DNA of 63,651 bases, filler included, from Psammoneis japonica (GCA_008632985.1; 4 parts of 4 records of this genome joined end to end with filler, not necessarily neighbours in it); one strand, 5' to 3'; counted from the whole stretch's first letter, positions 14,399-50,294 are shown. The notes: generated by a model not told the origin, from the sequence alone. Translations and numbers: made by a program.

Positions 14399-14464
14399 CT
14401 GGTCATGACAGAGCTGCAGAACAACAAGAACCTGCCCGATGAAGAGCGCGGGGCAAAGGAGAGA

Positions 14465-27817: not shown

Positions 27818-27987
27818 GTACACACTTTTGTAGATAATGTCGGCTCCAATCATTAGAAAGCTTTGATCAAATTGTGGTTGCTGAGTTACATTAAAGTTAG
27901 CTTTGTACATCGAGTGAAATCAGGCTCACTTTCCCACAGCGTGCTTATTGCAAACGCAACAGTTTACGTGAGTCCGAAGTCAAGATT

Positions 27988-28430
27988 TTAAAAGGTAAGA
28001 GTAGACAGCGGCTGGCAACGTCTTGCAGACCTGGAATACTGAAGGACCAGCTTCGTTCGTTGCCAATATACATCACCAACGACAGAGTGAAGGGACTCTT
28101 TGACCTTGTTTGCCAACGGCGCATAAGCGGTGTCACCCATTTGATTTCTTCGGACACACTCTTTAACAACCTAAATGTAGAGCAACGCGGTGCATGAGTT
28201 AGTTCCTTGGTTTGATTTCGCAGCTAGCCCGTCCGACACTGACAAAGAGGACAATGGCTTACCTTTTTAGCAACTTCGCGTAGGTACGGATCGTTACGTG
28301 CTAGATCATCAAACAGAATTTTGATAAAGATTACTAGCTCACGTCTTTCTGACCTACTCGAGACTTTGTTACAGTGTCTGTGTATCTGGTCCCGCTTTTT
28401 CTCTTCGACTCTGAAACAGTGTGCTGTCAT
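27988..28430 (-). CDS. Small diatom-type hypothetical protein (~116 aa); exons 28430-28263 and 28170-27988
   Basis: Phase-0 GTAAG..TAG intron joins ...VIFIKILF...REVAKK to VVKECVRRNQMGD...VGDVYWQR; resembles a diatom-specific family (from memory). Confidence 0.7.
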
Positions 28431-28908
28431 TGTGCTGAAAATATATTGTGGATGTTGTCTTCCTCGTCGTCTTCTATTCGTGAAAGTTTGGAGATTTTGA
28501 TTTTGGCAGATGGAATTGTGATGTTGTGAGTGCACTCCATACATTTTACGTGGGAAGCCACGACCCCGAGTCACACTTCTCGTTTTGGCGCTCTCACCTC
28601 TCACTGTTCGGATTGACCGTACCGGTACGACGTAGCGCGCTGGTACTGATTCTTCGTAGCCCGTCAGATTGACGCACGGCCGGTTCGGTTTCGCGGATCG
28701 CGCGGAACTCGACCGAACGCAGAAGATGACGTCAGTTGACACGATTATGAGAAGCCCAACACAATTAGGACCGTACCGTACTGTAGCAGAAGGCTTCTAG
28801 CTAGCTAAACAACTTCTCAAAATGGGCAATCTTTTTGAATACCCCAACAATAGGAAGAGAGTAAACCCAGGTCCAATGAGGTCATCGAGCTTTTGAGCAC
28901 GCTAAGGT

Positions 28909-28932
28909 AGAGAGAGAGAGAGAGAGAGAGAG
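28909..28932. repeat. (AG)n microsatellite
   Basis: Directly visible. Confidence 0.9.
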
Positions 28933-29092
28933 TTCCACTGTTGCATCTTGGATGCGATACCTAATCGATCCTTTTCTGCGAAATTGAAAAGCGGCGTTTT
29001 CGAATGATCAGCTAGCTACCTGCATCTTTGCTTTTAAAATTAAACAGTCATTTCATCTAGTGAGAGAACAAACGTTTCGAAAGAATGAGGTC

Positions 29093-30477
29093 TCAGTTTT
29101 TTCCGTCTTTGGCATCAGAATCGCTATCATCCTTGATTCCCACTGTTTCGAGATTCTTCTTTAAATCCGCTTTTTTCTCACGAAGCATCCACGTTGCCAG
29201 CTTGAGACGCTCTACGAGGTCATCTGTATCTAAAGCTTGAATCCTGTATGTTGCGTCTTCTTCCGGTAATAACTCTGTACAGAACGCGCTCCAAGAAACA
29301 GCCGTCAACTCCTGAGGCGTGCGCTCACTGTCGTTCTGTTCGGCGATACAATAGCCTATTGATCACATTAAAGCAGTATAATAAAAATGAATTTATCAGA
29401 TACAAAACAATGCTGGAAATCTTTAGCAAGCTTACTCACCCTGGGTATCAGTTGTCATTGCTACCTCGTAAGCCCGATGAAAACGAGCTCGGCGATCAAT
29501 ATCATCATTCTCAATGTCGTCGTCGTCGTCGTCGTCATGATAGAACTTATCCTCCTGTGAAAAAGATACGCGTCCTTCAGTTAGAAAACGAGTCGGGTCT
29601 CGTCTACACAGAACCATGAGGTACCCCAACACAATACTCACGAGCTTTGCAAGTTTGATTCGTCGCTTTATTTCTTGCGCTTTCTCATCATCCGAGTCCT
29701 TGGTAGCTTGTGCTAGTTGATGCTCCATACTTGAAAGCACCAACATGTAATTTTCAATATTGCTGGCGGCAAGGTTGGGTAGATCGAGGTTTGGTGGGAT
29801 TTTGTCCACAATTTCTGTGCAGACCGCCTTAATATATGGCTCCTGTTGTGTGACTTCCATCAGAGAGGCTCGACCAACTACACGAATAGTGACAAAAATA
29901 CCGAAATCTTCCACTCGATTGTATGCTTCCACCTCACATAATGGAACAGTCTGAATAACACCCGAGTCTGCCAGTAACCCCATTGCTACCACACCTTCAT
30001 GATTGTCCATGGTATCTTTGAATAACGAAATGAATCTACCAGTATGCCAGAACGCAATTGATATTCCAGAACAAAGAAGAAAAAAGAGATAGCCACATCT
30101 GCTGTCAGTACCTATCCTTCAGATTCATCTAATTCTGCACAAACAAAGGGCTCTCGTACAACCACTCCTACTCACCTTTCTTCGTATAATCTCAACTGCT
30201 TCGTTTCTCCCTGCAAAAGAACTTCGTGCCAAGGAAACGGGAGAATGCAAACTTCCTTTGGTGGCGCACTTTCTTCAACGCCCAAACGTCGGTCCTCTCC
30301 AGTGCCTGGAAAATCAAACACCAAATCTCTCCATTCTGGAATTCCATTCAGTTTCGTATTCTTACGACTGCTCGTGAGAACGACGCCCCGTCTGCCGCTC
30401 ACGACAAACGCCGCACAAAAACACCGGAAAGAAACCAACACCCCGAAACATGAAAACAGTATTCTCCGCTTTATCAT
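29093..30477 (-). CDS. LON peptidase N-terminal (substrate-binding) domain protein, plastid-targeted, multi-exon
   Basis: Signal peptide with CAA-F; ILPFPWHEVLLQGETKQLRLYEER/FISLF across intron 30175-30036; VTIRVVGR; ALDTDDLVERL. Confidence 0.8.
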
Positions 30478-31085
30478 TTTCTAAGTTAACGGATTATTCA
30501 AGAAACAAGTTGTTGCAACACGCAGATGATTGTAGCTGCAAAAAGATTCATTCCAACAAATTCTGACAATTTCCTTTCTTCGGCATCATCAATCAGAACA
30601 AACATCGCACATGCCGTACGGTCCACGCCACCTTTGCTCGTTCTTCGCTTCGTGGCGCAGAACGCAGAACGCAGAATCATCATCGGACGACAGCCAGAGC
30701 GTTTGGAGGTTCCCACAAGCAACGTCGCAACGTGACAAGATGCGCCACTCTCTCGAACGAACGAACGATCAAACTCTCTCTCTCTCTCGCTCCCTCTCTC
30801 TAACTCTCCAGGCCCTGCCGGCAGCTGCCACAGTGCAACTCGTTCAATCATGGGACATTGCTCACATGACCAACACTCACACACCCTTGTGCGAATTCCG
30901 TGCAAAAGAAAATTCTTCCTGTCTGCACACGCTGGTGCCTGGCGTGGAGGAGGGGGGTGCGTCCGTGCAACCACAGTTGTTGAATGACCCCAGTGACTGT
31001 TGTGTGTTCCTGACATCTCAGTGATGTCTTTTTTGTTGTTCTCAGAATCTGACATTTCAGAGGGGGGAGCACGGAGCACAAAACT

Positions 31086-33808
31086 TGACAGGATTTGAAC
31101 AAGATTTTGGTTTGTCACACATGGTCATGTGTGCTCTTAGTTCTGCGTGCGTCGCGCGATGTAGTTTGCTTTCGAGCCACAGAGCTCACAAGAACAATGA
31201 CAGCAGTGCCGACATCATGACACCAGTCTTTCGGCTCCTGTGACGGTTTCTGCACGGAGACTCATCTGCCATTTGGACAGCAGCAAGGAGTTGTTGTTTG
31301 CTTCCACCCAGTCATCTTCATTTTCTGTCAGGTTGACAATCTTGCTCTTTGTTGTCCATTGAGTGTTCATCATCGTCATCAAGAAATTTTGACGACATGC
31401 ACTGTTGGCGGTGGAAGCATGTGTCTGCCTTCTTCACTGCGCTGGTTGCTGGATTGAATCCACACGTTTGGATTTGTCCGACACCTCCCATCGTTGGATG
31501 CATTCATTCAACGGACATTTGTTTGGCCAGGAATTCCTGAATTCTCAGACATCCAAGATTCCGGATTCCTTGCAGTGGATCCTGCCAATGCATCCGCATG
31601 CGTTCACGTGCACACGACACAAATCCCTGACTCTGGCTCTGCTCTGCACATGCCAAGTCTACCGCCTCGCATCTGCGCCGGATTGCTGGTCTTCTGCAGT
31701 CCCACAAGGTCCACGAGGACAACTGTGAGAGGAAGCAATTCATGATCACAGCCTGCATTAGGGCAAGGGTGCATTTCCCACGCTTGTTCGTCCCTCCACA
31801 GCGCCAAATTTGGCCGGCCTGATCGGGTCATCCAACCGACATAAAATGAGAACGGTTCAATGGGTTCCAGTCCTGGGTGGGACTTTTTGTGACATTTGCC
31901 CCGTAGAATTCTACGTGCGAGCTCTGCAGTTCGTACTCTGGTTGATGGACACATTTATCTTCGACATAAAAAAAACGGCCAAGTTTGCAGCACATCCATC
32001 CATGTCGGCACTAGAAGTTTTGGACAACACGCCTGCCCTGCGCCATTCTTAAGACACTCGAGAATGGCGCAGAAGAAAAAAACATTAAAAGTTGGTCAAT
32101 GGATGGCCTGACAATTGCACCATAAAATCACACAAAATTTCGCCAAAATCACGTAGAAATGTGCGTGCGCGACATACAACGCGATTCAAAAAACTGTCGA
32201 TGTCACAGTTCAGCAGTGCGAGGTCCCACCTAGACCTGGAACGCGTCGTTCGGAGGTCTTGTCCACCTCTGGTTGGCTTGTCAGCAGGGGTTTTTAACCT
32301 GTTGCTCCACTCTCAAGCAACCCAAAGCATCGCCAGCTGTGGGCTCGGATGTGCCGGCACAACTCTGCGGACTGGGTGGGAAGCTTGGCACTTGACTGCG
32401 AACGGGACATCACAGCCCGGCGGCTTCTGACTCTTAAGACAGTCCAAGACATCAAGCCAAGATTCAAGTCAAGTTTCAAGTTGTTTCAAGCTCACCCTCC
32501 GACTCCAGCCAGTTCCGACATCCACCCAGTTGCAACATGGTTCTCACCAGGCAACAACAAATCAATGGCCTCGAGCACATTCTAGGCACTGTTCTGAATC
32601 AAGCCACAGACAGTCCATTGTGCTCCGCTCTCAACATTGATGGAGCCGATTTGCATCAGGACCTTTTCACTTTTACTCCAATGCAATTGGATTCCCTTGT
32701 GTTCAATGACAGAACCAATCAAATGCCTTTGCCATGTGGTTGTTGGCAATGACCCTCAATTGTTCACACAAGAGGAGTTCACCAACTGTCGTCTCAGTCC
32801 TGAGCATGCAGCGTCCCTCTCCATGGGTGCAGCACCATCTGCTCCCACTCCTGGCTTGTTGCCACCCAAACCATGTGATCCCGTGCATGACTTTAAACGA
32901 GGCATCAAACGTGACCCACTTGCCTTCGCGCTTCTCAAGTCCGACAAACGGTGGCACACGTGGCACACCTCCATCATTGCACAGGCCCACTCCCAAGACG
33001 TCACACGCATTCTTGACCCGACGCACAAGCCCTCTGCAGCTGAGGACAAGGCCCTGTTTGCTGAACAACAGAAGCACATGTTCACCACATTCGAACGGAT
33101 CTTGCAGAATGACAAAGGCAAGGCTCTTGTTCGTCAACATGTCGGCTCCTCTGATGCTCAAGCGGTGTGTCGTGACCTTTCCAAGTGTGCCCTTGCTTCT
33201 GCTTGCACATCCCTGGAGTCCTCGACCCTTCTCACGCACCTCGCCACTGCTCGCCTCGGTGATGGCACCTGGAAAGGTTCCACTCATGCCTTCATGCTCC
33301 ACTGGCAGGACCAGCTCTGCAAGCATGAAGCTCTTGTCCCGGGTGCGGACCATTTTTCTGCTGGCCAGAAATGTGTCATGCTTGAGAATGCCGCACATCC
33401 TGTCAAGGAACTCTGTTCGGTGAAGAATCAGGCCGATCAGTTCCGCATGCAGAATGGAAAGAGACTCTCTTACGAAGAGTGCTGTGGACTCCTGCTTTCT
33501 GCTGCAGCACAGCACGACAGCACGTTTGCCCCCAAGACGGCTCCTTGCGCTCCGCGCCGTGCCATCTACGAACATGACCTGGTCCCTGACGACCCTGATG
33601 ACGATGTGTTCTTTGACATCGACAGTGATGTTGATGTCATGCAAGCTCATGCTGTGCAAACTCGTGGCAATTCCCTCACCAGGGAACAATGGCGTTGCAT
33701 TCCGCCGACCACCAGCACATTTGGGACACCTCACCCCAGTCCACTGAGGCCATCATTCTTGGCTCGCGCACCACCCACACAGGCAACTGCCATGACTTGC
33801 TGGCAGTC
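31086..33808 (+). mobile_element. 5' part of a Copia element (LTR, leader, gag), cut by contig end; same family as 44800-50294
   Basis: LTR start TGACAGGATTTGAACAAG identical to 50168; gag DFKRGIKRDP...ARLGDGTWKGS closely matches 45030-45950. Confidence 0.88.
31859..32247 (+). mobile_element. MITE family A copy 2, nested in the Copia leader, retains many TpA
   Basis: Both TIRs present; TSD GTTC at 31855-31858 and 32248-32251. Confidence 0.88.
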
Positions 33809-33908
33809 NNNNNNNNNNNNNNNNNNNNNNNNNNNNNNNNNNNNNNNNNNNNTTAATTAATTAANNNNNNNNNNNNNNNNNNNNNNNNNNNNNNNNNNNN
33901 NNNNNNNN
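33809..33908. other. Artificial contig spacer
   Basis: N44-TTAATTAATTAA-N44. Confidence 0.98.
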
Positions 33909-36900
33909 GATTTAGGATGCAAAGGGGACACCATCATGGCTGATCTTATGCCTGACGGTGAAAATGATGCATCGGTCTTGAACAATGCCACTGCTTGACT
34001 TGTTCAATTCTTACAAAGACAATCACCAGTGTCAGTGTCAACTTCATTGGCCAAAACAGAGTTGGAGGGTAAATTCAAGAAGTGAAAGGAATCTGCCTCA
34101 ACTTCATTACATTCAGGATTGCATTTGGGCCACTGGAAAGCAATGCATGCTCCACATTCTCACTCCTCAGCCACAGATTCTGTTGGGAATCCTGCGCAAG
34201 ACCAAGTCCAATTGAACAAGGTGCAACAGTGTCTGATTGCCATCAGGTTGAACTTGTTGAAAATTGCGCCCTCAAATGGGGATGTTCCTGCGATTGCTGG
34301 AAGGACATTGTGAATGTTGTGATTTTCAAAGAGCCCAGTGACAACAAGATCCATCACCTTTGGGTCATTCACATCTATGAGGCAGACTTTCAACTGATGT
34401 CCAGCATCAAGTGGCGTCTGTTAGCTCAGAATGTGGAACACCGTCGGTGCTGCAATCACGGCACGTGCAGCACAAGCCCTTTCCCAAATGCCAACACTCC
34501 AGTCTATCTTGAAGAACTCATGCTCAAGATCAGTTGGGTGTCTCGAAAATCAGCGATGCACAGCAATGGCAACAATGCCTCGTGTCATGAATGTGACATG
34601 CATGTGTTGACCGCCATGCAGAGTTGGAGCAATGTCATGCCCGCTGAAGTTACAAAAGTGGCTAACGCCACATTGCATGAAGCTGGACATTGGCTCAATG
34701 TTGTCCTTGGCTTGTCCTCAACTTCCCATTCCCACTCTGAGGCTTTCCCACGTGCGGCGCTGGTCAGAGCAGTGGCAACTCCCCTTTTTATTGGAGTCAG
34801 TTGTGCACAACAGCCTGTTTTGCTTGTTTGACCAACAGGCACACGGAGCATGTTTTGAGACTCCTGACCAATCAATGTCTCCACACATGTTTCAAAGAGG
34901 ATGTGTTTATGACACATCAATGCAAGTCAATGATTTTTGCACTTCTCCTCAACCTTCTGCCTTCAATTTGTCCTTGCACATGTAGGAGGACAACCAACTC
35001 TGGTGCGACCTGTTAGATTCTGCGGGACACGAACTTGAGCTTCCCAAGTGTTCATTTCATGCCATTGAATGACTGTTTGCAGATGACAGCGAACCACATC
35101 TATGACCTCACAACAAAGACACATGCAGTGAGGTGTCCTCCATGGATTGACAGTTGACACGGGACAGTCCCCAGCTTTCAGCCTGCTTGGCTCACAAGAC
35201 GCTCGGCTGTCATAAATCACCCGCTGGAACACAGAAGACACAATTTGTCAAACTGAAGACAAAGAGTGATGATCTTTTGGTCTTTCTCCAGTTGTGCCTG
35301 CTGGATCGAGATGATGCCTGGACATGCCATTTTGCCTGCTGTTTGGCCTCTGTGACCCACATCCTTCCCAGTGCTCACTTTTCTCCAAAAGAACTTCACG
35401 ACATCCAAAGGAAAGCCATGTGGGTGATGTTTGCAAAGTGTGGTTACAACAACAACACTGAGTGCGATGCGTCATGTGGCCCTTGCTCTTTGGGTGGAGG
35501 TGGCTTCCGATCTCTAGACATTGAACAAGGAACTTCACAAGTCTTGCAATTTTTGCACCAATGGAGAGGGTCAGGTCAACCTCGGATTTTGTCTCACATC
35601 ACCATGGCCTGGGTTCAGTTTCAACTTGGTGCCGGTGTCAGCTTCTTGAGGGACGTCCATGCAAAGCTTCCTCATTTGGAGTCAAAATTGTTTGTGTCGC
35701 TACGCTCCTTTTTGGCTTGGGTAAATGGATGCATTGAGGTGGATGATGCCAGAGTTCTGCCATTACAATGCAAAGGGGACTACTTTGTTGTGGACCACAC
35801 ACTCAAGTCCGGGATGTTTTCAGACAGGGAAGTCCGGCTGATCAATCATTGTTGACTGTTCCTTCAAGTCCTCACCGTGTCTGATGTCACCCCACCGGAT
35901 GGCAGGTTTCTGGACGCTGCTAAAGTGAAAGGAGATCCTTCTTTGTTGAGCAGCATGTCTGTGTTGAACCCAGTTGAACAACCCCCCCGTCTGCTTGTGC
36001 ATGAACTCAATGGCACAAGGTTTGTTCCTTGTGGTGTGAAGAAGGTATTTTGGAGCGTAAATCGTCCCTGGGCAACTGGCTGACATGTCTGCAGACAAAA
36101 TGAGAATGACTTTCACAGCATGCTATGAGCCCTTTGAAGAACATTTGTGCATTCGGTCCTCCAAGCAATTTGAAGTGTTTCCAGTGACTGACAACATTGC
36201 TGACACTGTCGGATCTCTCTAAACTGTGCCAGACATTTCCCCGTTAGCGGCACCCATCGTGGTGGACACCACTGACAATGGACGATGGCATGTCATAAAT
36301 TGTGGAACAGCTGTGTCTGTCCCTGGGGCTGTGCTGATTCCCAATGACTTCATGGAAATGTTGGCATCTCTTTCTCCTTGGGAGGCAGCTTCATTTGACA
36401 GTCTTACCTTGCATGTTTCTGTTTTTGAACTGGCAGACATCATGCGAACTAACAAGGCCATGGCAGGGAGTGATGGTTTGGTGTTAGATTTTGATGCGTC
36501 ATTTGGATGGACTTTGACCATCAATGGGAACCCCTTGGCTGATTGTGCGGGTCCAGTGTTTGGTTTTTGGCCTTCTTCTTATGGAGCAGAAGCATGTGGA
36601 TTGTTGTCCATTCTCTGCTTTCCTCTTCCAGTTGTGGAATGTGCTGGGACGGGTTTTCTCTTGGGGACTGATTTGCATTGTGACAATTCCTCTCTCTGGT
36701 TTGCAACGTCTCTTCATTTCACAAGCCGCCTCCATTGGATGTGCATGGACTCAATGGCACAAAGCTTGTTCTTTGTTTTGTTTGGAAGGAACTCTGGAAC
36801 TGCAATCTTCACTGGGGAGCTGACTGGTTTCTGCAAACAGGATGAGAATGACTTTCACAGCATGTTGTAAGCCGTCTAAAGAATTTTTGTACATTTGGTC

Positions 36901-38670
36901 CTCGGAGAAATCTGAGGTGTTTCCTGTGCATGATGGCACAGCCGAAACCGTTGGATCCCTTGAAACTGCATCTGACATTTCCCCATTGGCAAATTGTGGG
37001 ACAGCTGTTTCTGTTGACTGTGCCAATCTCCAATGACTTCGTGGTGATGCTTGAATCTGTGCCCCCTTGGGAGACAACTTTGTTTGACAATCTTGCACCT
37101 TGCACGTGTCTGTTTTTGAACTGGCAGACATTTTGCAAACCAACAGGGCTGTGGCAGGGAGCTACAGTTCAGTGATAAATTTCGATGCATCATTTGGATG
37201 GACTTTGTCCATTGACGGTGCTCCCTTGGTTGATTGTGTGGGTCCAGTGTTTGGTTTCTGGCCTTCTTCTTGTGGAGCCAAAGCTTGTGGACTCCCCGAT
37301 TTCTGCTCCAAGTTGTGGAATGCACCAGGACGGGGTTCCCCTTGGGGATTGTGTTGTGCTGCGACAACTCATCTCTGGTCTGCAATGTCTCTTCTTTTCA
37401 AATGCCACCTCCAACAGCAGATGAAGATGCTTCCCTGGATTGCTGCATTGATCATGCTCATTGACATCACATTGTGAATGAGGTGTCTCTAGACTGGGAT
37501 GTTCTGCATGAAATCTTCCACTCCTTCCAACAGCTTTCAGAATTCTCTGTCAATGATTCAGGAGGTGCTCAAGTGGAGGTGACATGGGTTAAGAGTCACC
37601 AGGATGATTCTGTCCCACACAAGAATCTTCCTCTGCCAGCACAATTGAATGTTCATGCAGATCACCTGGCAGGACGGCACCATGGAACACACTCAGAGGC
37701 AATGTGGCCAGCACCACAATTTCCACACTGTGCTGCTAATCTCATTGTCAATGACTTGTTAATTGTGACTAAGTTCAAACCAGCATTGTGCTGCTCCAGC
37801 ACTCTGAGTGCACATGATGGAGAAGCACGGATGGTCTGATGAAATGTTCAATTCCATGGATTGGCAGGTCCATGCAAAGTTGATGTCCAGAAAAATTTTG
37901 CCGGCGGGTCAGCACTGTGAAGTTGGTTCAAGACCTCTTGCCTGCAAATAAAATTGTCCACAGACACAACCCCACTCAATCGGACTGTTGCATCCATTGC
38001 CAGCATCCCATGGAAGACAGGGACCATGTTCTGCAATGTCCCTACAATGAACAATGGCACAGGACATTTCTTCAAGGCCCACACAAGAAGTGTGACAACA
38101 TTTCCACTTCTCCTTCATTGAGAGACATGTTGCTGTTGTGTTTGGAATCATGGTTTTGCAAAGAAATTGTTCACTCAGATGATGTGCACCACAGTGTCTG
38201 ATCAGTCTTTCAGGTTCTCAGTGGAGTGGAACATTGCTCAACAAACATGCTCATTGACCAGCAGATCTCCAGTGCAGGCGGGCAACAGTTGAAGACTGGA
38301 CTGAGCAGCTGCTGCAGGTTCTTATGTTTGGCCCCAATGGTGGGAACTGTGGGACTTGCACAATGATGCAGTGCACAGACACAATTCAGAAACTGGGAAG
38401 TCATCCCAGCATTGAGACACCAAAGCAGAAGTCAATGCCATGTGCTCCAGAGTGAACGACCATTTGGCAAAAGACAAGGCGCATCTGTTTGACTCAGTTG
38501 ATGAACATCTGGCCCATTCAACACACAGATTGAGAAATTGGTTGATGACAGTTCACCCCATGTTCAAGTCCAGCATCCGGGAAGCAAAACGTCTTGCTGC
38601 AAGAGGCACTCGTGCCATTGCCAGTTACTTCAGCTTGGCTCCACCGCCAGGTGGTGCCAATGTTGGCTAA
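33909..38670 (+). mobile_element. Degenerate non-LTR retrotransposon (RT, RNase H, C-terminal CCHC; Ambal-like)
   Basis: Fragments KEPSDNKIHHLWVIHIYEADF, HKTLG, GPCSLGGGGF..EQG, SDG..ASFGW, SSYGAEACGLLS, HCDN, WVKSHQD..LNVHADHLA, CIHC..EDRDHVLQC; many frameshifts. Confidence 0.8.
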
Positions 38671-38789
38671 TTGTCACATGCCCCTGCCACACCATTGGTG
38701 TGCTGGGGGTGTTTTGGGCTAGCTTGATGCCGGAGTTGCAGGGTGGAAGTGCAGCAGCACCTTGAACATGGATTTTGGGTTTTGTTTTG

Positions 38790-39142
38790 TGACATCAAGT
38801 GTTTTTTGGATTGTGTCGTATGTTGTGCACATAGATGGCTGTGTGTGACATTCTACGAAATTGTTTCACACTCCCCATTTTACAAAGCCAAAGGCTTTCT
38901 ATTTTCAACATTCATGAGAATGAAAATACAATGGGCATGTTCTGCAATGTCTGTGGAATGTACCCAGGCAAACTGTTGATGATGCACTTCAAGTGTGAAG
39001 GAGGAGATGTGTTTGTAAAATTGCCTCTTTCTGTTGGTGATCATTTCTATTTTCATTGCTTGACAAATTTACTGTGAAGCTCGCACGTAGATTTCTATGG
39101 GCCCAATGTCACGTGGAGTCCCACCTGGGACTGGAACCCATC
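38790..39142 (-). mobile_element. MITE family A (subfamily 2) copy, one end eroded
   Basis: Ends GTCCCACCTGGGACTGGAACCCATC; internal sequence matches 61281-61677. Confidence 0.75.
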
Positions 39143-40998
39143 ACCCCATGGCACCCGTTGTTTTTTGCACATCCAACCCGCTCTATGGTCATTCTCCATC
39201 CTCTCGGTTTTGCAACATTTGCATTTGAACCCAACAAGCTCCCACCTGTGAAAGACATTTGCAACTGTAAGAGAACTGTGTGCCATTCTTGTTCTTAATG
39301 GAAATGACATTGCAAGTCACACGTGTGGCACACACTTGCCTCTTCGATGTCTTTGTCTTCCTCCACCTGCTTGGTTTCCTGTTCTGCACATCTTAAAGCA
39401 AGAAACCTTGCAGCATCAGTCTTGATTGTTTTGCTCATCTCTGGCATCCTGTCCATTCATTGTCTGTTTCATTCTGGCTGTGATGGTTCGGGGGTTCCTG
39501 TTGTTGGTGCCGTTCATGTGGGAAGGAGGACCGAGTGTGCCCCCAGTTGCACTCCAGTTGTTCATGCTTCGTGTCCAATGTTCAGTCGAAAAGCAGATTT
39601 GTGTGTTGGTTGCAGCTCCATCTGATGTGTCCTCTGCAGCTTTCAAAGTTTTCATGGTTGCTGTTTGCAGGTGCTGGAAATGTCCATCGCCGAAGTTCTT
39701 AATTTTCAATTTAAACAATGATGACATGTTGTAAATTTGTTCAATGTGGCCATTTTGAACAATGCAGACATGCAGCCTTTTAAAAAAGTTCACTTTAAAC
39801 CAACGTTTTCCTTTGTTGCTGAAGATCCCTCTCGCAACGTCTGATTTCCTTGTGACATGGACGCCTTTTTTGTGTGGCACGTCACAAATGTAACGTCAGA
39901 TTTTAGGCACAATGCACCACTTGCAGTCTAGCAGCTGCCATCGACGGTGCCACCGTGGCCCCAACCTGCACCTGACATTGTTAGAGCAGCTTCTACTCAC
40001 TCTGTGGTAGAGTTTACGTCTTTTGCAGCTGCCGCTGCCGCAGCCCCTCCCCGTGCCTTAATGTGGGTTGACAGTGCATTGCCGCAGCCCCTGACTCTGT
40101 GATTTGTAACGTGCTCTACAGCAGAGCTCATTTTCCATGATTTTTGAATTTGCCATTTTATTGTTTTTTGCAAGCACATCCATCACTGTTGGTTGTTACA
40201 TCCTCCACAGAGTTTCAGGGTTGCCACAACCAGCAAAACACCAACAATCCATGTGCACTGGCTTTCGGGGGCAGCCGAAGCCTTTTGACAGAGATTTCAG
40301 GTCTACAACATTGAACAGCACACCCCCTTCCTTGGAGGCACCACTCTCAGTCTTGCCGGGGAGCAAACCCATGGCTCTCTGAGGCTGTTTTGATGTTCAG
40401 AGGGGGGGGGGGACAGCCACAGGCATCCCAGGCCACGTGAACAACTTTGCAGAAAGACATTGCCTGGGCACAGCTGCAGCCGGCAACCCAGGCAGTTACT
40501 CAAAATTTTTAGTGTGAATTTGAGTCAACCTGTGGCACCATTTGACTGTCATCTGTTTGCTGCACAAATTGGCATTTCTGCACAAGATCTGGCATTGTCT
40601 CTGCATGTGAAAAAAGTTTCTTCTGATGTCTAACTCATTGTGTCATCAAGGCCTTCCATTTTACACCTGACAGTTCTGAGGAAGAACACTTCTCTTGCTC
40701 ACTGACATGTCAAGTTTGCTGCTCTGAGTGATGAACTCTCTGCTTTTTTCCAGTCCCAAAAGTGGGAAACAAGTCTGTCATTGTTGAAGGCAAGTCTTTT
40801 CCTTTCAAGCAATGCTGTTGTTCCAGATGTTGTGCTGTTCTTGAGCCATTTTTTGCGTGTGACTGTCCTCTGCCATTGCACAGTGGATGCCATGCATCCA
40901 ATGACAAAAAAAGCAATGAACCTTTTCATGTGTTGTCTCATTTCAACCAGATGTCTCTGGCAGGTGTTGATGCATGGTGGCACCATGTCCAACCAACT

Positions 40999-41324
40999 GG
41001 TGGGACTTTTTTGTGACATTTGCCCCGCAGAATTCTACGTGCAAGCTCTGTGGTTTGTAATCTGGTTAATGCATGTGTTTGTCTTTGACATAAAATGAAC
41101 CCACCTGCCCTGCACCATTCTTAAGACATTTAAGAATGGCAAAGAAGAAAAAAATTAAAAGTTGTTGAATGGCCGGATGGCCCAACAATTGTGCCATAAA
41201 TGATGGAAAACATCACCAAAATCCCGTAGAAATGCACATGCGCGACATGCGATGCAATTCAAAAAACCATTGATGTCACAGTTCAGCACTGCCAGGTCCC
41301 CCCTGGCTAGACCTGGAACATGTC
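40999..41324 (+). mobile_element. MITE family A copy, left TIR partial
   Basis: GGTGGGACTTTTTTGTGACATTTGCC...CTAGACCTGGAACATGTC. Confidence 0.8.
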
Positions 41325-41329
41325 AACTG

Positions 41330-43360
41330 CGCTTGCTTCTGTGGGATCCCCAGGTTGCACTGGAAGTGTTGGTTGGCTGGTGCCTGTGTTGCTTGGCACA
41401 GGTGCAACTGCACTTTAAACCAGGTTTGGTCTTTTTGTGGGATCCTGCAGAAATTGTGGGAAGAACAAGCCACACCAAATTCACCAAAGCAGCCAAAATG
41501 CTTTATGATCATTGGGATCTTTGGCAGCCTTGTGCTCTTCTGTTTTGCTTTTTGTGGGCTGCCACTCAGTTCACCACTTGACTGTGCCACAATGTGGTGC
41601 AGTGCAAAAATGCAAGATTGCTGCCAACTTTTGCTTCAGCCACATTGAGGCAAATGGAGGGCTCTTTAAGTTGAAACTCCTTTTGATTGATTTGATTTGT
41701 GGCAGCCTTGGGTTGTCATGCTGAGCTTCTGTGGTCTGGTGTTGAGCATTCTGTCAACTGCACCAACTTGTGGCTTCCTCCAAAAATCAGGCAAAACTTT
41801 GCCAAGCTTGCCAAATGAGTTGTTTTGAGGCAAAAGAAGGCACCTCCAAGTCAAAATTCTTTTGATTGTTGGGATCTTTGACAGACTGGGTTCTTGTGTT
41901 GACCTTTTGTGAGTTGCTGTGGAGTGCCCCAGTTGACTGTGCCACATTGTGGGTTGTGATGCAGTGCAAAAATGCAAAATCTCACTTCTGGTTTTTGCCA
42001 CAGCAGCATTGTCATGAGGCAAATGAAGGACCCAAAAAAGTCACAACACCTTGTGATGATTTTGATTTGGGGCAGCCTTGGGTCATTGTGTTGAGCTGCT
42101 GTGAGCCAGTGTTCTTCAGTGTTTTGTCAACTGCGCCAACTTGCACTTTCCTGCAAGATCACTTAAATCCCTGCCAAATCCCAGAAAGTTCACCAAAGGA
42201 GTTTTTCAGGCAACATGAGGCCTCCAAGTCAAAATGCCCATCAGCTGTTGGAATCTCTGGCTGCCTTGGATTTATGTGTTGGCTTTCTGCAGGCTGCCAT
42301 TGAGTGCGCCGCTTGGTTGTGCTCCACATCTTGTGGCACAGTGCAAAAACAAGGGGTGTGCAGTTGTTGAGACAAATTGAGAGCTCCAAGTAAAAACACC
42401 TTTTGATCATTTTGATTTGCAGCAGCTTGCAGCTTGCCATAGAAATCACTTGAAATCTTGCAAAATCTCACCACCAAACTTGCACCAAAGGAGTGGCTGG
42501 GGCAACACAATGCCTCCTTGTTCCAAATCAAAATGTCTTTTGATTGTTGGGATTTTTGTGTTTGTCTTGGATTCTCATGTCACTCAACCTCCTGTGGGCT
42601 GCCACTGAGTGTTCCACTTTCCAAGTGCTCCAGTTGACTTTGCCCCATTGGGGCACAGTGCAAAAGCCCAGGATCATTTTGCCAACTTTTGCCACATTTG
42701 TCAAGGCAAATAGAGGGCTCCAAGTCAAAAACAACTTTTGCTGGTTTTGATTTGTGGCAGCCTTGGGCATTTGTGTTGAGTTTCTGTGGCATGGTGTTAA
42801 GTGCTCCATTGGTTGCACCAGCTTTTGTTTTTCTGCAGAAATCCTGTGATCAATCCCCACCCACCAAATTTGCCAAAGGAGCTGTTGGGGCAAAACAAGG
42901 CATCAAAGTCAAAATGCCTGGGCAGCCTTGGGTTCTTGCATTAACTTTCTGCAGGCCATGGTTGAGTGTGCTGCTTGACTGTGCTGCAATGTTGCACAGT
43001 GTGAAAAAAGCAGAGTCTCGCCACAGATTTCTGATGCAGTCATGGATGCAAATGCAGAGAACTCCAAGTCAAAATGCCTTTTGATGATTTTGGTTGGTGG
43101 TGGCCATGGGTTGTTCTGTTAAGCTTCAGCAGGCTGGTGTCAAGTGTTCTGTTGATTGCGCTCTAGCTTTTTCTTCCTTCCTGCAAAAATCCTGCAGAAA
43201 AATTCTGCTAAATCCCACCTCTGTCCCGACAATTCACCAAAGGAGTTCCAAGGCAAAACAAGGACTCCAAGTCAAAATGCTATTTGAATGTTGGGGTCTT
43301 GGGCAGCATTGGGTTTTTGCTCATCACCAAGTTTGTTGCTGTGGTCATTTTTTCTAAAGC
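41330..43360. repeat. Old degenerate tandem repeat, period ~165-190 bp
   Basis: Recurring TCCAAGTCAAAAT (~41846, 42222, 42522, 42719, 43063, 43267) and GGCAGCCTTG (~41523, 41701, 42071, 42756, 42922). Confidence 0.65.
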
Positions 43361-43399
43361 AAACCCAGGAAGGCAGCTGATTTCAAATTGACTGTCCCA

Positions 43400-44240
43400 G
43401 CTTCATGTCAAGCAAGAATCTCTCAACTGCAACAGGGTCAGCAACAAACCCCACAGAACCATTGATCTGGCAATCCTTTGACAGTCAGTGACAACAGCTC
43501 AAGCTGGCACCAATGCTCCATTGCTTCAGATGATGCCTGTGCACAACAAAGTTCACTCAACTTGTGGAGTCAACAATGGCAGGTTGAAAATGGGGGACAA
43601 CTGCTCTGTGCATCACACAGTGCCACAATTCCAAGGCTCTGGATGTGACAGAGAGGTCTCCTCCCCAACATCAACTTGCTTCTGCAATTACCTCCAAGTT
43701 CAACAGTCAACTGGAGGAAGCTTCAAGTGGTCCTGTTGATGATTTGGGTGAGGACCATTTTGTTGAGATTGTGAAAAATCTGGTGGAAGCTCATGGCTGA
43801 GAGATGCCCCATCAGTTTAAGCAGAAATCAGGCAAGGTGGTGTGCATTTGCAATCCTCTCCAAGAGTTTTCTGTTGCCAACCAGCTGCTTTGCAAAGTGT
43901 TGCTATGACCAACACTTGCCGATGTGTCTGACAATCTTGGTGCCACCATGCCAAAGCCTGCAAGTTCTTAATCTGAGCCATTCCAAGCTGCACACACCCA
44001 TTCTGGTTCACATGCTGTCCAGCTCTGCTGGCCATTTCCAAAACATTGTTGTCCCTTTCCACAACTGCAACACTCTCAAAGGCAGCAAGGCCCTCATGAA
44101 ACACCAATCGGGCCTTTGCAATGTTGTCAGCACTGCCACAAGCTTGCAGAACCATGTTTGCATCTGGTGCCATGGTCAAGGCTGCCAACACCACCACTCC
44201 TGCTGCTGCCATGTTTCCACATGAATTCAAGCAAAGCAAA
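43400..44240 (-). mobile_element. Relic of another Copia gag N-terminus
   Basis: VQLGMAQIKNLQALAWW resembles diatom Copia gag N-terminal motifs (from memory). Confidence 0.45.
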
Positions 44241-44699
44241 GAACCAACGTCCTCCCTTCATGTTGTCACATTCTTTCCAGGCACAGGAGACCTGTCACCA
44301 TCAGCCAACTGACACAAGGGGGGGGGCCAATCCCAGCACCATTTCATCCACCAAGTTGTTGAGCACTCTCACTTGGGCATGTGCTCATGCTGTGACTGTT
44401 TCACACCTGTTGCAACAGGGATGCTTTGTCAAGTGCAAGTGTGCACTGTTCAGGCTGTCTCATGCCATGTTTGATGATGCCACAAAATGTCAAGAGATTT
44501 TCATGTGACACACATGCATGCAACCTGGTGCTGTTTCTGCAGCCAGCAGCCTGCATGGGTCAGCACAAGCAGTGATCAAATGTCAAATTGCTGCACAACA
44601 ATGCAAATCACATCATTCCCATTCATGCCATCTTGACAGCTCTGACAAAGCAATTGAGTGGTGATGCAGTTGGCAAGACATTGCACCAGCACTGATGAC

Positions 44700-44797
44700 A
44701 GAACATGTAGAAATGTGCGTGCAGAACACACGACAGATGACAAAAATAATTGTCACAGTGCAGTGGTGCGAGGTCCCACCTAGAGCTGGAACGCGTC
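44700..44797 (+). mobile_element. MITE family A right end abutting a truncated Copia gag
   Basis: GTCACAGTGCAGTGGTGCGAGGTCCCACCTAGAGCTGGAACGCGTC. Confidence 0.7.
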
Positions 44798-44799
44798 TA

Positions 44800-47700
44800 A
44801 CAATGGCACCAATCAAATGCCCTTGCCACGTGGTTACAAAGCACAGATGGCTGCGCTGATTAGCCTGTACATGGCAAAAGTGTGCGGCAGCGCTGATGTC
44901 AGCAACAACCCTCAATTGTTCACACACGAGGAGTTCACCGACTGTTGTCTTAGTCCTGAGTGTGTAGCATCCCTCTCCATGGGCACAGCACCATCTGCTC
45001 CCACTCCTGGCTCGTTGCCACCCAAACCACGTGACCCCGTGTGTGACTTTAAATGAGGCATCAAATGTGAACCACTTGCCTTCGCACTTCTTAAGTCCGA
45101 CAAACAGTCGCACATGTGGCACACCTCCATCGTCGCACAGGCCCGCTCCCAGGACGTCAACGGCATTCTTGATCCGAAGTACAAGCCCTCCACAGCTGAG
45201 GACAAGGCCCTGTTCGACGAACAACAGAAGTGCATGTTCGCTGTGTTCGAACGCATCTTGCAGAATGACAAAGGCAAGGCACTTGTTCGTGAACATGTCG
45301 GCTCCTCTGATGCTCAAGCAGTGTGTCGTGACCTCTCCAAGTGTGCCCTTGCTTTTGCTCATGCATCCCTGGAGTCCTCAACCCTTCTCACGTACCTCAC
45401 CACTGCTCGCCTTGGTGATGGCACCTGGAAAGGATCCACTCATGCCTTCATGCTTCACTGGCAGGACCAGCTTTGTAAGCACGAAGCTCTTGTCCCAGGT
45501 GCGGACCATTTCTCTGCTGGCCAGAAACATGTCATGCTTGAGAACGCTGTTCACCCCATCAAAGAACTTTGTTCAGCAAAGAATCAGGCCGATCAGTTCC
45601 GCACGCAGAATGGCAAGGGCCTTTCTTATGAGCAGTGCTGTGGACTCGTGCTTTCCGCAGCGGCACAGCACGACAACACGTTCGCCCCCAAGACGGCTCC
45701 TCGTGCTCTGCGCCATGCCATCTACGATCATGACCTGGTCCCTGACGACCCTGATGATGATGTGTTCTTTGACATTGACAGTGATGTTGACATCATCCAA
45801 GCTTATGCTGCGCAAACTCACGGGCACTCCCTCACCAGGGAACAATGGCGTGGCATTCCGCCGGACCATCAGTGCATTTGGGACACCTTGCCCCAGTCCA
45901 CCAAGGCCATCATTCTTGGCTCGCACACCGCTCACACCGGCAACTGCCATGACTTGACGGTGGTCAACCTGCACGACCTCCACATTGGCAGCGATGGTGA
46001 TGTCAACTTGTCCGCCCACACTCACGATCTTGCATCAGCCTCCGCACAATCCATTGCTGCCGCCGATGCAGCCGATGCTAACCCCATTCTGGCTCATCTC
46101 ACCAGGCGCAAGCCTTTGCCACCGGGCGACTTACAATGTCTCCTGGCACCTGAGCGGCCCCCTCCTGCCTGTTCTGGAGAGAAACCCCCCGGATCTACAC
46201 CTTCCGTCTTCTCTGACGCAAAGCCCAACGATGCTGACATCAAGATCAATGGTCATAAATGCCATCGTGTCAACAACCACAATGTTGTCTGCTCTGCCTC
46301 GACCCACAAATTGACTCGCAAAGGTGCCCTCGTGGATCGTGGTGCAAACGGTGGTGTCGCCCGTGATGATGTTCATGTCATTGCTCGCACTGGTCACCAG
46401 GTTGACGTCCAAGGTGTTGACGATCACCAACTGGTCAACATTCCCATTGTCACTGCCAGTGGTGTCATCCACACACAACGCGGCCCCGTCATTGCCATTC
46501 TTCACCAGTGCGCCTACACTGGAAAGGGCAAGACCATGCATTCTTGCAGTCAACTGGAGTGGTGCAAACACGACATCAACAATCGGTCCATCAAGGTCCC
46601 CAATGGTCTGCAGCGCATCACCACCATTGATGGATGCGTCATCCCCATTGACATCAAAGGCAGCCTTCCGTACATCGCCATGCGCCCATGCACTGATGCC
46701 GAATGGGACACCTTCCCACACATTGTCCTCACTGGTGATGACACTTGGGACCCATCTGTCCTCGACCACCAGTTCACTGACAATGAGACATGGTGTGATG
46801 CCGTGTCTGACCTCCAGGCTGACCCAACTGCCAACCTCTTTGACGAGTTCGGCAATTATCGCCACCGTCATGTCATCAACAATGCCATGCTTGTGGACTC
46901 GATGACCACCTGCTCCCGACATCCGATTTCTTCTACGAATGCCATGAGCATGAGATCAATCCAAAGGATCCTGACTTTGAGTCTCTGCGCCCTCATTTTG
47001 GCTTTCTTCCAAAGGACACTGTCCGCCGCACTTTTAATTGCACACAATGCGCTCTCATGCCCACCCGGCTCTCAACATCCACCGACGCAATGAACCCATT
47101 GCCACCAACATGGTGCACTCTGACACCCCCGCTGTTGACTCCGGCTGCACCAGCACCCAGCTCTTCGTTGGCATCAAATCCCTTGTCATGGACATGCACG
47201 GCACCAAGACCGACAAGGAATTCTCGTCAACACGCTTGAGGACAACATTCGCAATCGCGGTGCCCCGTCCAAGCTCATCAGCGACGGTGCTCAAGTTGAG
47301 ATCAGCAACAAAGTTCTTGGCATCCTTTGTGCCCTCTTCATCTCTAGTTGGCAAAGCAAACCTCACCAACAGCATCAGAATTTTGCTGAACATCGCCATC
47401 AAACTGTGAAGACCATGGCCAACCATCATGGATCGCTTTGGGTCTCCAGCTTGCACCTGGCTGCTCGCCCTGATGTACGTGTGCTTTGTGCTCAACCACA
47501 CGGCATCTGCCAAGCTCCACTGGCACACCCCCACCGAAGTGCTGTCCGGCTCTACTCCCAACATCAGCCAGCTCCTCCATTTCCAATGGTGGGAACCAGT
47601 GTGCTTTCACCTGGATGATTCCGACTGGCCATCCAAATCCCGTGAACTAGGCAGTTGCTTTGTTGGCATTGCCGAACACGTGGGCCACCAAATGACATTC

Positions 47701-50294
47701 AAGATTCTTTCTGATGACACTCAGAAGATTCTCTGTTGTTCCAACTTGCGTTCCGCCCGTGATCCATCTGCACCAAACCTGCGTCTTGATCCTCCTGATA
47801 AAAAATCTGCTGAACCCACAATTAAATCCCGCCATGACTCCGTGGATTTGCCGGATTCACCAGATGGGGAGGTGATCAGGATGCCCAAAATGCTGGTCTT
47901 TGACCCAGAAGACATCATCGGACGCACCTTCCTCTTGAAGCCACAAGAGGATGGACAATGCCACAGAGCCTGCATCTTCAAAGCCGTTGAGGACCACGAC
48001 TGGAAAATCGGAGACAATCCTGAACCAGTCAAGTTCATTTGCTCCATCAACAATGACGAATACGAGGAAGTCCTAGCCTGCAATGACATCATGCACCACA
48101 TCGAGCAAAAAGATGAGGACACTACCCTCTGGAAGTTCCGATGCATCGTGTCACATGAAGGACCATTGCAACCCCATGATCCCTCTTGGAAAGGCTCAAG
48201 CTACAACATCATGCTTGAATGGGAGAATGGGGAGGTCACATCCGAACCCCTTGCCATCATTGCCAAGGATGATCCCGTCACCTGCACCATCTGCGCACGT
48301 GAGCATGGCCTCCTTGAAACCGAAGGATGGAGGCGTTTCGCAAGATAGCCCTGTGTCAGAAGAAGCTCTTCTGCATGGCCAACCAAGCCAAGTTACGCTC
48401 CTTTCGCACTGCGCCACGATGCAAGTGCGGATGTGAAGTGCCACGGGACTACAAGCATGCCTTGACTCTCGATGAGTGCAATGGCAACCGCAAGTGGGGA
48501 GATGCAACGGACCTCGAGATGACTCAGCTTGATGAGTACAAGGTCTTCCATGACTGCGGACATTACAAGGATTCCAGCGCCCCATTGGGACACAAGAAGA
48601 TCCGGGTGCATCTTGTCTGCAACGTCAAACACAACGGATGGCACAAAGCAAGGCTTGTTGCCAATGGACACCTCACGGACGTGCCTGTTGACAGTGTCTA
48701 CTCCGGAGTAGTGTCTCTTCGTGGCCTGCAAATGATGATCTTCCTAGCCAAACTCAACAAACTAGAGACTTGGGCCGCCGACATTGGGAACACCTATCTC
48801 GAAGCTACGACTAAGGAGAAACTACTGTACATCGTAGCAGGCCCCGAATTTGGCAAGCTAGAAGGACACATCCTTGTCATCCACAAGGCCTTGTGCGGAC
48901 TCTGCAGCTCTGGCCTCAGATGGCATGAACGCTTTGCTGATTGCCTGCGTGCTGAAGGCTTCTTCCCATGCAAAGCCCAACCCGACATTGGGCTGCGCAG
49001 GAATGGTGACCACTGCGAATGCGTGGCAGTGTATGTGGACGACCTGGCCTTTGCCATGAAGGACCCCCAGGCTTTCACAGACACCCTCATGGAGAAATGC
49101 AAGTTCAAGCTCAAAGGCACTGGACCATTGGAGTTCCATCTTGGTTGCGATTTCACATGTGATCCAGATGGCACCCTGTGCCTTGCTCCCCGCAAGTACA
49201 TTGAGCGCATGGTTGACAACTACGCACACCTCTTTGGGGAGAAGCCATGCACTGATGTGCTTTCACCCCTTGACAAGGGCGACCACCCTGAGCTTGACAC
49301 TTCCTAATTGCTCGAACCTGATGGCATCCACCAATTTCAATCCTTAATTGGTTCCCTTCAATGGGCCACATCCCTTGGTCGCATTGACATTACTACGGCT
49401 GTCATGTCTCTGTCTAGCTTCCGTGCAGTGCCCCGCCAGGGCCACCTAGACCGTGCCAAAGGTGTCTGCGGGTTCCTTTCCAAGATGCGTCATGGTGCCC
49501 TCCGAGTGTGCACCGAGGAGCCCGACCATTCAGACCTTCCTAAGCCCGTGTATGACTGAGCCCATTCTGTGTACGGGGAGGTAGAAGAGCTGCTCCCGCA
49601 AGATGCGCCTGAGCCACTTGGCAAGTTCGTCACCACAACGCACTACGTTGATGCGAACTTGTTCCATTGCATGCTCACTGGACACTCTGTCACCGGCATT
49701 CTCCATTTTCTAAACAAGTTTCCGGCTGATTGGTTTTCTAAGAAACAAGCCACAGTCGAGACTGCAAAGTATGGATCCGAGTTTGTCACCGCAAGGACGT
49801 GCGTTGAGCAGATCATTGAGCTGCGCATCACTTTGCATTACCTTGGCATCCCCATCCGTGAAACATGTTACATGTTCGGGGACAACAAGTCGGTTGTGGA
49901 CAGTGCCACCATCCCACACTCCAAGTTACACAAGCGACACACCGCCCTCTCATTCCATCGTGTACGTGAGGCGATCGCCTCCAGTTTTCTTGAGTTTCAT
50001 TTCATCGAAGGGTCCCGCAATCCGGCTGACATCCTCAGCAAGCATTGGGGTTGCTCCCAAGTCTGGAACCTCCTTCGTCCTCTAATGTTTTGGAACTTTG
50101 ATCCCGAGGCTTTCAACCAATCTGACTTTGAATCTATCGCTGTTGACCCCTCAAGCAAACTGGGGAGTGACAGGATTTGAACAAGATTTTAGTTTATCAC
50201 ACACAATTATGTGTGCTCTTAGTTCTGCGCGCATCGCGCGATGTAGTTTGCTTTCGAGCCACACGGCTCACAAGAACAACAACAGTAGTGCCAA
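44800..50294 (+). mobile_element. Ty1/Copia element (gag-PR-IN-RT-RH, PPT, start of 3' LTR at 50168), disrupted, partly TpA-mutated
   Basis: LVDRGANGG protease; KARLVANG, ADIGNTYL, ALCGL, YVDD RT; YVDAN, YGSEF, MFGDN, NPADILSK RNase H; GGGGAG then TGACAGG. Confidence 0.93.

Follow-up and report, generated by a model that had tools for sequence, protein, structure and literature searches.

TpA loss in two copies of one Copia family points to probable post-integration hypermutation of repeat DNA in the diatom Psammoneis japonica

When two copies of one retrotransposon retain different numbers of TpA dinucleotides, were these steps erased after insertion, independently in each copy, or were they already missing when the copies arrived? 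The question is raised by a stretch of 63,651 nucleotides from Psammoneis japonica (GCA_008632985.1), hereafter the window, which joins four contigs (1-17003, 17104-33808, 33909-50294, and 50395-63651) by spacers of the form N + TTAATTAATTAA + N. Copy A (31086-33808) comprises a 5' long terminal repeat (LTR), a leader, and gag, and is ended by the end of contig 2. Copy B (approximately 44792-50294) comprises gag-pol and 127 bp from the start of the 3' LTR, and is ended by the end of contig 3. The two copies thus sit on different contigs; both are truncated, dead representatives of a single high-copy Ty1/Copia family. A sequence-only reading of this DNA had proposed that they carry different doses of TpA loss and that the mutation follows insertion, strikes each copy separately, and accumulates patchily. 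Our analysis makes it probable that repeat DNA of this diatom undergoes TpA-erasing hypermutation after integration.

The LTRs of the two copies (31086-31212 versus 50168-50294) align without gaps over 127 bp and differ by 13 transitions and 1 transversion. The gag regions (32741-33808 versus 44897-45965) align with one 1-bp indel and show 131 differences in 1,068 bp, consisting of 106 transitions and 25 transversions. Identity between A and B is 90% in the LTR and 88% in gag, rising to 99.2% and 97.6% when transitions are masked. All four LTR differences named in the sequence-only reading are present: copy B has TA and copy A has TG at TTTAGT/TTTGGT and TTTATC/TTTGTC, and copy B has TA and copy A has CA at TTATG/TCATG and AGTAGT/AGCAGT. 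The gag pairs that it listed were also found, namely KYKP (45177) versus THKP (33021), TYL (45390) versus THL (33234), AYA (45801) versus AHA (33645), and KCM (45228) versus KHM (33072). In the gag overlap, 19 of the 22 adjacent double transitions set CA against TG, an excess from which it follows that their adjacency is not random. One correction is required. CpG versus TpG or CpA explains 42 of the 131 gag differences; a third of the differences between A and B stems from the usual decay of methylated CpG and not from loss of TpA.

The claim of different doses holds. Within the shared 1,195 bp, copy A retains 5 TpA (3 in gag and 2 in the LTR) and copy B retains 16 (10 and 6), and the positions at which only one copy has TpA favor B by 11 to 0 (sign test p = 0.001). 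The loss is also patchy along copy B, as had been proposed, with more TpA toward its 3' end: 32 TpA occur in 44897-48500 (observed-to-expected ratio, o/e, 0.17) and 42 in 48501-50294 (o/e 0.41), and this contrast is significant (p = 1.2e-4). The reverse transcriptase (RT) of copy B likewise keeps the reported YVDD motif, at 49032-49043 (TATGTGGACGAC), and reads KALCGL...RWH at 48885, a motif pair at whose positions Tyr is presumably usual.

The direction of change was assigned with outgroup proteins. A protein search with the 678-aa frame of copy B (45057-47093) returned 63 unnamed homologous proteins, one of them carrying RVT_2, with Tyr contents of 2.3-4.9% as compared to 1.2% in B. Close copies of either Copia family of the window were not found in the protein searches, the best full-length matches being 46% identical for the copy B frame and 54% for a second Copia element on contig 1; given this distance, the relatives were used as outgroups only. 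One partial match to the B frame, P0149, reaches 64% over 32% of the query, and a metagenome scan with the B gag-pol frame gave 18 pattern matches, none of which is a relative. The polarization alignment contained the best 28 of the 63 relatives and was restricted to columns with at least 60% outgroup agreement. At 18 Tyr-consensus columns, copy B has Cys in eight, His in two, Tyr in six, and Phe in two; the conserved Tyr residues of this frame are mostly Cys. At 12 such columns, copy A has His in five, Cys in three, Tyr in two, and Phe in two. Consensus His (9/9), Trp (8/8), Glu (8/8), and, with one exception, Pro (15/16) are kept. Local alignment of B with P0149, its closest outgroup (63% over 227 aa), gives seven Tyr-to-Cys replacements, three retained Tyr, and one Tyr-to-Leu replacement. 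Because outgroup Tyr residues have become Cys or His in the elements, TpA was lost rather than gained, with conserved TAY codons turning into TGY or CAY, in the direction first suggested. At the 17 Arg-consensus columns, copy B has Arg in six, His in five, Cys in four, and other residues in two; the Arg-to-His and Arg-to-Cys changes are the signature of CpG decay.

The contig-1 element belongs to an unrelated Copia family and has HVDD in place of YVDD in its RT, at 4957-4968 and 6964-6975. Upstream of RVT_2 it carries gag_pre-integrs and SH3_retrovirus domains. Its 22 Tyr-consensus columns, defined against 30 relatives, hold Cys (9), His (7), Tyr (2), Phe (2), Gln (1), and Arg (1), whereas consensus Pro (35/35), Trp (11/11), and Gly (40/41) are kept. 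Alteration of the Tyr columns alongside retention of Pro, Trp, and Gly implies that TpA steps mutated many times faster, that is, that they were hypermutated. The replacements Val to Ala, Ile to Met or Val, Thr to Ala, and Leu to Pro or Ser also fit conversion of TpA to TpG or CpA. The best named relative of this element is from Fragilaria crotonensis (54%), and none of the 120 relatives listed is comparably poor in Tyr (minimum 1.39%, mean 2.86%, versus 0.2% in the element).

TpA depletion is present in all repeat DNA of the window. The repeat parts, 51,522 bp in sum, contain 353 TpA against 3,147 expected from base composition (o/e 0.11), with CpA plus TpG at an o/e of 1.4-2.0, and several 500-bp intervals of contig 1 contain none at all. 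Unique genic DNA on contig 2 (11,650 bp), which serves as an internal control, contains 437 TpA against 774 expected (o/e 0.56) and is spared; approximately 0.55 kb of spill-over lies between it and the repeat edge at 31086. TAA and TAG triplets fall from 8.2 per kb per strand to 2.6 and 1.9 in the repeats, with TGA at approximately 20-22 throughout. This scarcity of TAA and TAG accounts for the many long open frames in the repeats; the window contains 65 open frames of at least 180 aa, spread across all six frames, the longest of 1,804 aa.

Three other causes were considered and set aside. RIP, or repeat-induced point mutation, can be ruled out, as the change runs the opposite way and TpA in the repeats is not raised. 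Selection against TA is rejected, since conserved and catalytic Tyr residues are themselves replaced. Decay of CpG as the sole cause is rejected as well, since it cannot remove TpA.

Whether the two copies lost TpA separately can be read from sites at which one has CA and the other TG. Such a site derives from one ancestral TpA or from one ancestral CpG changed on opposite strands, and the outgroups separate these two origins. Six sites are of TpA origin (33035, 33075, 33088, 33421, 33732, and 33745), three are of CpG origin (33086, 33206, and 33372, the last being an Arg CGT codon that became Cys in A and His in B), and the remaining ten are uninformative on origin. The site at 33075, the KCM/KHM pair, is a true TAC mutated on opposite strands (Tyr in 16 and Phe in 7 outgroups), just as the sequence-only reading had supposed. 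The six opposite-strand sites of TpA origin mean that at least six TpA were lost twice, independently. Independent loss in each copy is thus supported, by these six sites and by the 11 losses private to A against none in B; part of the loss is possibly shared.

Several observations weigh against wholly independent loss and would suit a largely inherited one, in which source copies that were already depleted multiplied, through retrotransposition in trans or through tandem or segmental duplication, and only a minority of changes followed insertion. Tyr codons lost in both copies are concordant in outcome by 5:1, and all five TpA left in A are also present in B, so part of the loss may predate the split of A and B. 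Tandem units of 2,007 bp and 1,393 bp are 99-100% identical and nearly TpA-free, which means that depleted DNA was copied or that the assembly duplicated it. An LTR-like pair, 3199-3656 and 13931-14389, has no TpA in either member and only two discordant sites, both CA versus TG, although it lies in tandem arrays and is not shown to represent the LTRs of one insertion. Largely inherited loss is nevertheless unlikely in our estimation. It does not accommodate the six opposite-strand sites and the 11 private losses of A, and at codon positions 2-3, which can reveal CA/CA and CA/TG outcomes only, three sites are discordant and none is concordant. A copy with HVDD would make an improbable active source, and a context preference can produce concordant outcomes without common descent. 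The losses common to A and B may therefore be a mixture, much of it independent and some of it passed down from an ancestor that was already partly mutated or imposed by the local context; the concordance counts are too small for the shared fraction to be estimated.

The hits fall on both strands. In 44 polarized events from pairwise repeat alignments, in each of which one copy keeps TA, the other copy has CA in 24 and TG in 20, and the Tyr outcomes of the contig-1 element are balanced at nine Cys to seven His. All seven losses private to A in gag are T to C on the sense strand and, therefore, are not explicable by editing of sense genomic RNA. These counts bear on the possibility that an ADAR- or ADAT-like enzyme edits UA in the RNA or cDNA of the element before integration, with the changes fixed by reverse transcription. 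Such editing would predict the lean of Tyr losses in copy B toward sense-strand A to G (Cys over His by 9:2, p = 0.065), a point that counts against a DNA-level process, and the available part of one preprint describes an ADAR preference for U before the edited A (bioRxiv 10.64898/2026.01.13.699255). However, antisense changes are as common as sense ones, and an element with terminal inverted repeats (TIRs) and single-copy flanking DNA are affected too; we regard editing before integration as very improbable.

The TIR-bearing element resembles a miniature inverted-repeat transposable element (MITE) and is nested in copy A, where its TIRs occupy 31864-31883 and 32223-32242 (20 nt, 85%); they are 29 nt long in the copy at 61277-61681. 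The interval 31854-32248 is skipped by five other Copia-family contigs. Further MITE-like copies lie at 392-734, 41007-41325, 38787-39143 (-), 61267-61677 (-), and 44704-44797, and TpA content ranges from 0 in the copy at 392-734 to 12 in the nested one. The TpA o/e of the nested element is 0.44, as compared to 0.09-0.13 in the surrounding copy A (p = 2.9e-4). A later arrival with shorter exposure would explain this higher TpA content. MITE-like elements are approximately 393-405 bp long and form two subfamilies that differ in the middle part. Their summed contig depth of 66,000-123,000, versus approximately 55 for unique DNA, indicates that they are very abundant.

Directly upstream of copy A, the single-copy flank at 30534-31085 contains only 2 TpA, whereas the rate in the neighboring genes predicts 18.2 (P = 2.3e-6), and its CpG o/e is 0.97, not depleted. 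Since the flank lost TpA and kept CpG, TpA loss and CpG decay are separable. A counterargument is that the flank could be a very old repeat without any match at 80% identity. The depleted zone ends at approximately 30534, close to the end of the next gene's spliced contig, although DNA contigs break near this position too and it is not a mapped transcription start. That gene, at 29019-30541 (-), has three introns (84, 87, and 140 bp, GT..AG on the minus strand) according to a spliced contig of run X2, and its product has no Pfam match. Within 30545-30718, the flank occurs in two forms (7 and 14 bases absent; ATC and C added), each at about half of the depth (33-38 of 71), which suggests a diploid, heterozygous host. 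As for timing, changes on both strands, the involvement of the MITE-like element and the flank, and the weaker depletion of the younger nested insertion make loss after insertion plausible without proving it. Together, they favor a post-integration, DNA-level mutator.

The mutated sites have a sequence preference. Repeated contexts within a family were removed, leaving 41 events, and four bases were tested. Where only one strand reads T-A-C, the A of that strand is the one that changed in 11 of 12 cases (p = 0.006). TpA that survive in the repeats are followed by T in 9% of cases and by A in 38%, versus 27% and 22% in genes (chi-square p = 2e-22). This context bias looks like the site preference of an enzyme. 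The natural target of TadA and ADAT2 in the anticodon loops of tRNAs is the A34 that follows U33 (UACG in tRNA-Arg). As TA is palindromic, attack on the A of T-A-C is indistinguishable from attack on the T of G-T-A. The same DNA-level process could thus begin at the thymine of TpA, for example through a base like 5-hydroxymethyluracil that mispairs with G. T-A-C reads G-T-A on the other strand, and the data fit both forms; in dinoflagellates, 5-hydroxymethyluracil is reportedly preferential in TpA and TpC. We give attack on thymine a low probability. In the available part of the preprint that describes this signature elsewhere, an adenine deaminase is the agent put forward, and it is the sole published proposal (bioRxiv 10.64898/2026.01.13.699255).

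Contigs from DNA sequencing run X1, of which 6,475 aligned to 27000-33808 at an identity of at least 80%, bear on the abundance of the family and on the quality of the sequence. Their summed depth stays at 54-72 as far as 31085, reaches 189,683 in the bin that begins at 31086, which places the repeat edge exactly there, and is 10,797 after 31312 and 7,500-12,000 over gag. Summed contig depth is not copy number; as a rough guide, the A/B family numbers on the order of a hundred copies or more. The same contigs matter for the idea that the signature is an artefact, in which a modified TpA motif in repeats is systematically miscalled or misassembled. X1 may be the assembly's own source and so does not independently exclude base-calling errors, which counts on the side of an artefact. 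However, thousands of the aligned X1 contigs show both states at variable sites, and at 31109 most of the depth reads A and a minority reads G, as in the window. (Of 586 variable places, 40 were considered; the 26 of them that fall inside the element are those with the best support and not a fair sample.) The changes are, moreover, complete over tens of kb, occur on both strands, and end at gene borders, and the available part of the preprint reports the same signature with Illumina data in Bigelowiella natans (bioRxiv 10.64898/2026.01.13.699255). An artefact is, accordingly, hardly credible. From run X2, labelled 'DNA?', contigs skip GT..AG intervals in the neighboring gene, as RNA would, and almost none lie on the element, and nothing was concluded on expression.

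These results allow us to propose a mechanism. TpA would become TpG or CpA; the transition at this palindromic step runs from A:T to G:C and can start on either strand, and the process would act on chromosomal DNA after integration. Affected domains would cover LTR retrotransposons of different families, the MITE-like element, tandem repeats, and a few hundred bp of single-copy DNA, and the process would halt at expressed genes. Every resident copy would lose TpA separately and to a differing degree. TAY codons would turn into Cys or His codons, TAA and TAG stops would disappear, and the contig-1 RT would have lost its catalytic Tyr in this way. CpG decay runs in parallel. The data themselves show the direction of change, its specificity for TpA, the hits on both strands, the confinement to repeat domains, the independent hits in A and B, and the preference for the strand with TAC. 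The agent may be a DNA adenine deaminase of the ADAT2/TadA kind, by analogy with the proposal for B. natans, and its targeting would follow silent chromatin rather than sequence homology. We hold with about even confidence the broader statement that diatoms have a RIP-like defence with its chemistry reversed, a chromatin-domain-targeted TpA mutator that prefers TAC and acts on resident transposons of every class.

The coordinates of the features discussed are collected in the table.

Table. Features of copies A and B, the second Copia element, and the reference and flanking regions of the window
Feature	Position	Strand	Remarks
Second, unrelated Copia family	4468..9879	-	One 1,804-aa open frame; TpA o/e 0.08; RVT_2 E = 2.3e-59
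Unique genic DNA, internal control	18884..30533	.	Pyrophosphatase, mitochondrial ATP synthase alpha, others; TpA o/e 0.56
Single-copy flank upstream of copy A	30534..31085	.	552 bp; depth 54-72 versus 54-59 in the unique region
5' LTR of copy A, 245 bp, TGACAG...CTGTCA	31086..31330	+	2 TpA (o/e 0.13); putative LTR end
Leader of copy A	31331..31854	+	3 TpA (o/e 0.10)
MITE-like element nested in copy A, ~393 bp	31855..32247	+	12 TpA (o/e 0.44)
Leader and start of gag region, copy A	32248..32740	+	32248-32697 without counterpart in copy B
gag of copy A, part common with B	32741..33808	+	Cut by contig end; 3 TpA versus 53 expected
3' fragment of MITE-like element	44704..44797	+	Directly upstream of copy B
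gag of copy B, part common with A	44897..45965	+	10 TpA versus 55 expected
Open frame of 678 aa, copy B	45057..47093	+	gag, protease-like stretch (LVDRGANGG), downstream pol
pol piece of copy B, other frame	47410..48348	+	Frame break before it
Copia-type RT of copy B	48318..49307	+	RVT_2 E = 1.5e-21
C-terminal pol piece of copy B	49560..50180	+	RNase H by position only; TpA-richest part of the element
Purine-rich tract AAACTGGGGAG	50157..50167	+	Adjoins 3' LTR; putative polypurine tract
3' LTR of copy B, first 127 bp	50168..50294	+	Cut by contig end; 6 TpA

No complete element of the A/B family exists within the window, and no copy there carries both LTRs. The start of the copy A LTR is well defined, as the match to 50168-50294 begins exactly at 31086. 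A joint from 32247 to 32704 was seen in the aligned X1 contigs. Copy B lacks a 5' LTR and leader at its locus. In copy B, Pfam matched none of gag, protease, integrase, and RNase H, with 45057-47093, 47410-48348, and 49560-50180 all unmatched.

In the contig-1 element, a 2,007-bp unit occurs twice head to tail inside the Copia pol frame (4944-6950 and 6951-8957, 99.9% identical), and this duplication is why RT and HVDD appear twice in the 1,804-aa frame. It is either a real, recent tandem event or an assembly artefact. The other tandem repeat of contig 1, at 728-3527, has a unit of approximately 1,393 bp that is 99-100% identical between copies, an internal period of approximately 67 bp, a single N at 1714, and 0-1 TpA per 500 bp. 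On contig 3, tandem repeats of approximately 350 bp lie within 40500-44500, where TpA o/e is approximately 0.1, CpG o/e is 0.00-0.12, and CpA plus TpG o/e reaches 2.0; this is probably the oldest repeat DNA of the window. A TpA-depleted frame on contig 4 (57294-59157) is acidic, Pro-rich, and repetitive, with a 12-nt period and a weak match to Trypan_PARP far under the Pfam cut-off, and is probably a satellite read as an open frame. The start of contig 2 (17104-18880) has 11 TpA in its first 175 bp and only 7 in 17279-18880 (approximately 1.6 kb); normal density is back at 18884, which marks a second edge of a depleted domain.

Genes in the unique part of contig 2 include one for an inorganic pyrophosphatase (Pfam E = 2e-46) and one for mitochondrial ATP synthase alpha, the latter in an uninterrupted 521-aa frame. 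The ATP synthase subunit shares 92-94% identity with the representatives of clusters, formed at 90% identity, in which the named members are all diatoms (Phaeodactylum, Chaetoceros, Nitzschia, Fistulifera, Ditylum, and others), and 87% with the cluster containing Parmales (Triparma), which identifies the host as a diatom. Also in this region of normal TpA density, 22646-23647 (-) encodes a protein rich in Pro, Gly, and Ser with a repeat of approximately 42 nt (SNPSGGPSSSPGVG...); the protein may be secreted or wall-associated.

Mutational genome defences are known as RIP in fungi and, in another form, as APOBEC and ADAR editing in animals. RIP, in ascomycetes, changes C:G to T:A, chiefly by turning CpA into TpA, which raises the TpA content, and needs duplicated sequence. 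As in RIP, the repeats of the window are riddled with one class of transition in one dinucleotide, both strands are hit, open frames are killed, and flanks are reached. Unlike RIP, the change here is A:T to G:C and destroys TpA, single-copy flanking DNA is affected, and near-identical 2-kb tandem units persist. G-to-A editing by APOBEC3 and A-to-G editing by ADAR act asymmetrically on the two strands and are confined to elements that pass through RNA or cDNA. They share with our data the clustered transitions in retrotransposon copies and a dinucleotide preference, but in the window flanking DNA and a TIR element are affected as well, on both strands. The decay of CpG in methylated transposons yields the same products, TpG and CpA, and is active in the same copies (9 of 17 Arg columns changed to His or Cys), but it cannot remove TpA. 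Diatom Ty1/Copia elements carry the name 'CoDi'. The elements described here resemble them in carrying an RVT_2 reverse transcriptase, in the arrangement of gag and pol, and in short LTRs that putatively run from TG to CA, and differ from them in being Tyr-poor (0.2% in the contig-1 element and 1.2% in copy B), which none of the relatives listed is.

The closest likeness is to the chlorarachniophyte B. natans. In mutation-accumulation lines of this alga, the available part of the preprint reports that 231 of 302 new substitutions fell in integrated giant-virus and virophage regions, that with a single exception these were A to G or T to C, and that the GC-biased ones were all on TpA (Mettrop et al. 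2026, bioRxiv 10.64898/2026.01.13.699255). The substitutions occurred in some lines only, RT and DDE domains were overrepresented among TpA-depleted coding sequences, and an ADAT2-like protein was proposed as the agent (bioRxiv 10.64898/2026.01.13.699255). As far as that part of the preprint goes, the two cases share an exclusive change of TpA to TpG or CpA, TpA depletion with CpA plus TpG enrichment in clustered windows, and uneven activity on foreign or selfish DNA that spares host genes. They differ in host, a diatom (stramenopile) here and a chlorarachniophyte (rhizarian) there, and in targets, which are Copia elements, the MITE-like element, and tandem repeats here and giant-virus and virophage inserts there. 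Depletion is far deeper in the diatom (o/e 0.00-0.2 over tens of kb, versus a Rho of 0.45 for the region from a nucleocytoplasmic large DNA virus), and our evidence is comparative, whereas theirs is mutation in real time. Full-text literature searches returned this preprint as the only precedent for a TpA-directed mutational defence and no report of TpA loss in diatom repeats; the preprint's tables of genes depleted in TpA may be relevant to this comparison.

With a diatom showing the same signature, the phenomenon extends to a major group of algae that is open to genetic work, and in this diatom it is far more complete and falls on ordinary transposons. TA o/e and Tyr-less polyproteins provide a simple genomic read-out for surveying other genomes, and T-A-C is a testable enzyme preference. 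Gene finders will call the TAA- and TAG-poor repeat frames as genes. If the proposed mechanism is correct, the mutator erases Tyr codons and TAA and TAG stops until no targets remain, and the occurrence of the same signature in a chlorarachniophyte means that it could be an old defence common to the stramenopile-alveolate-rhizarian (SAR) supergroup.

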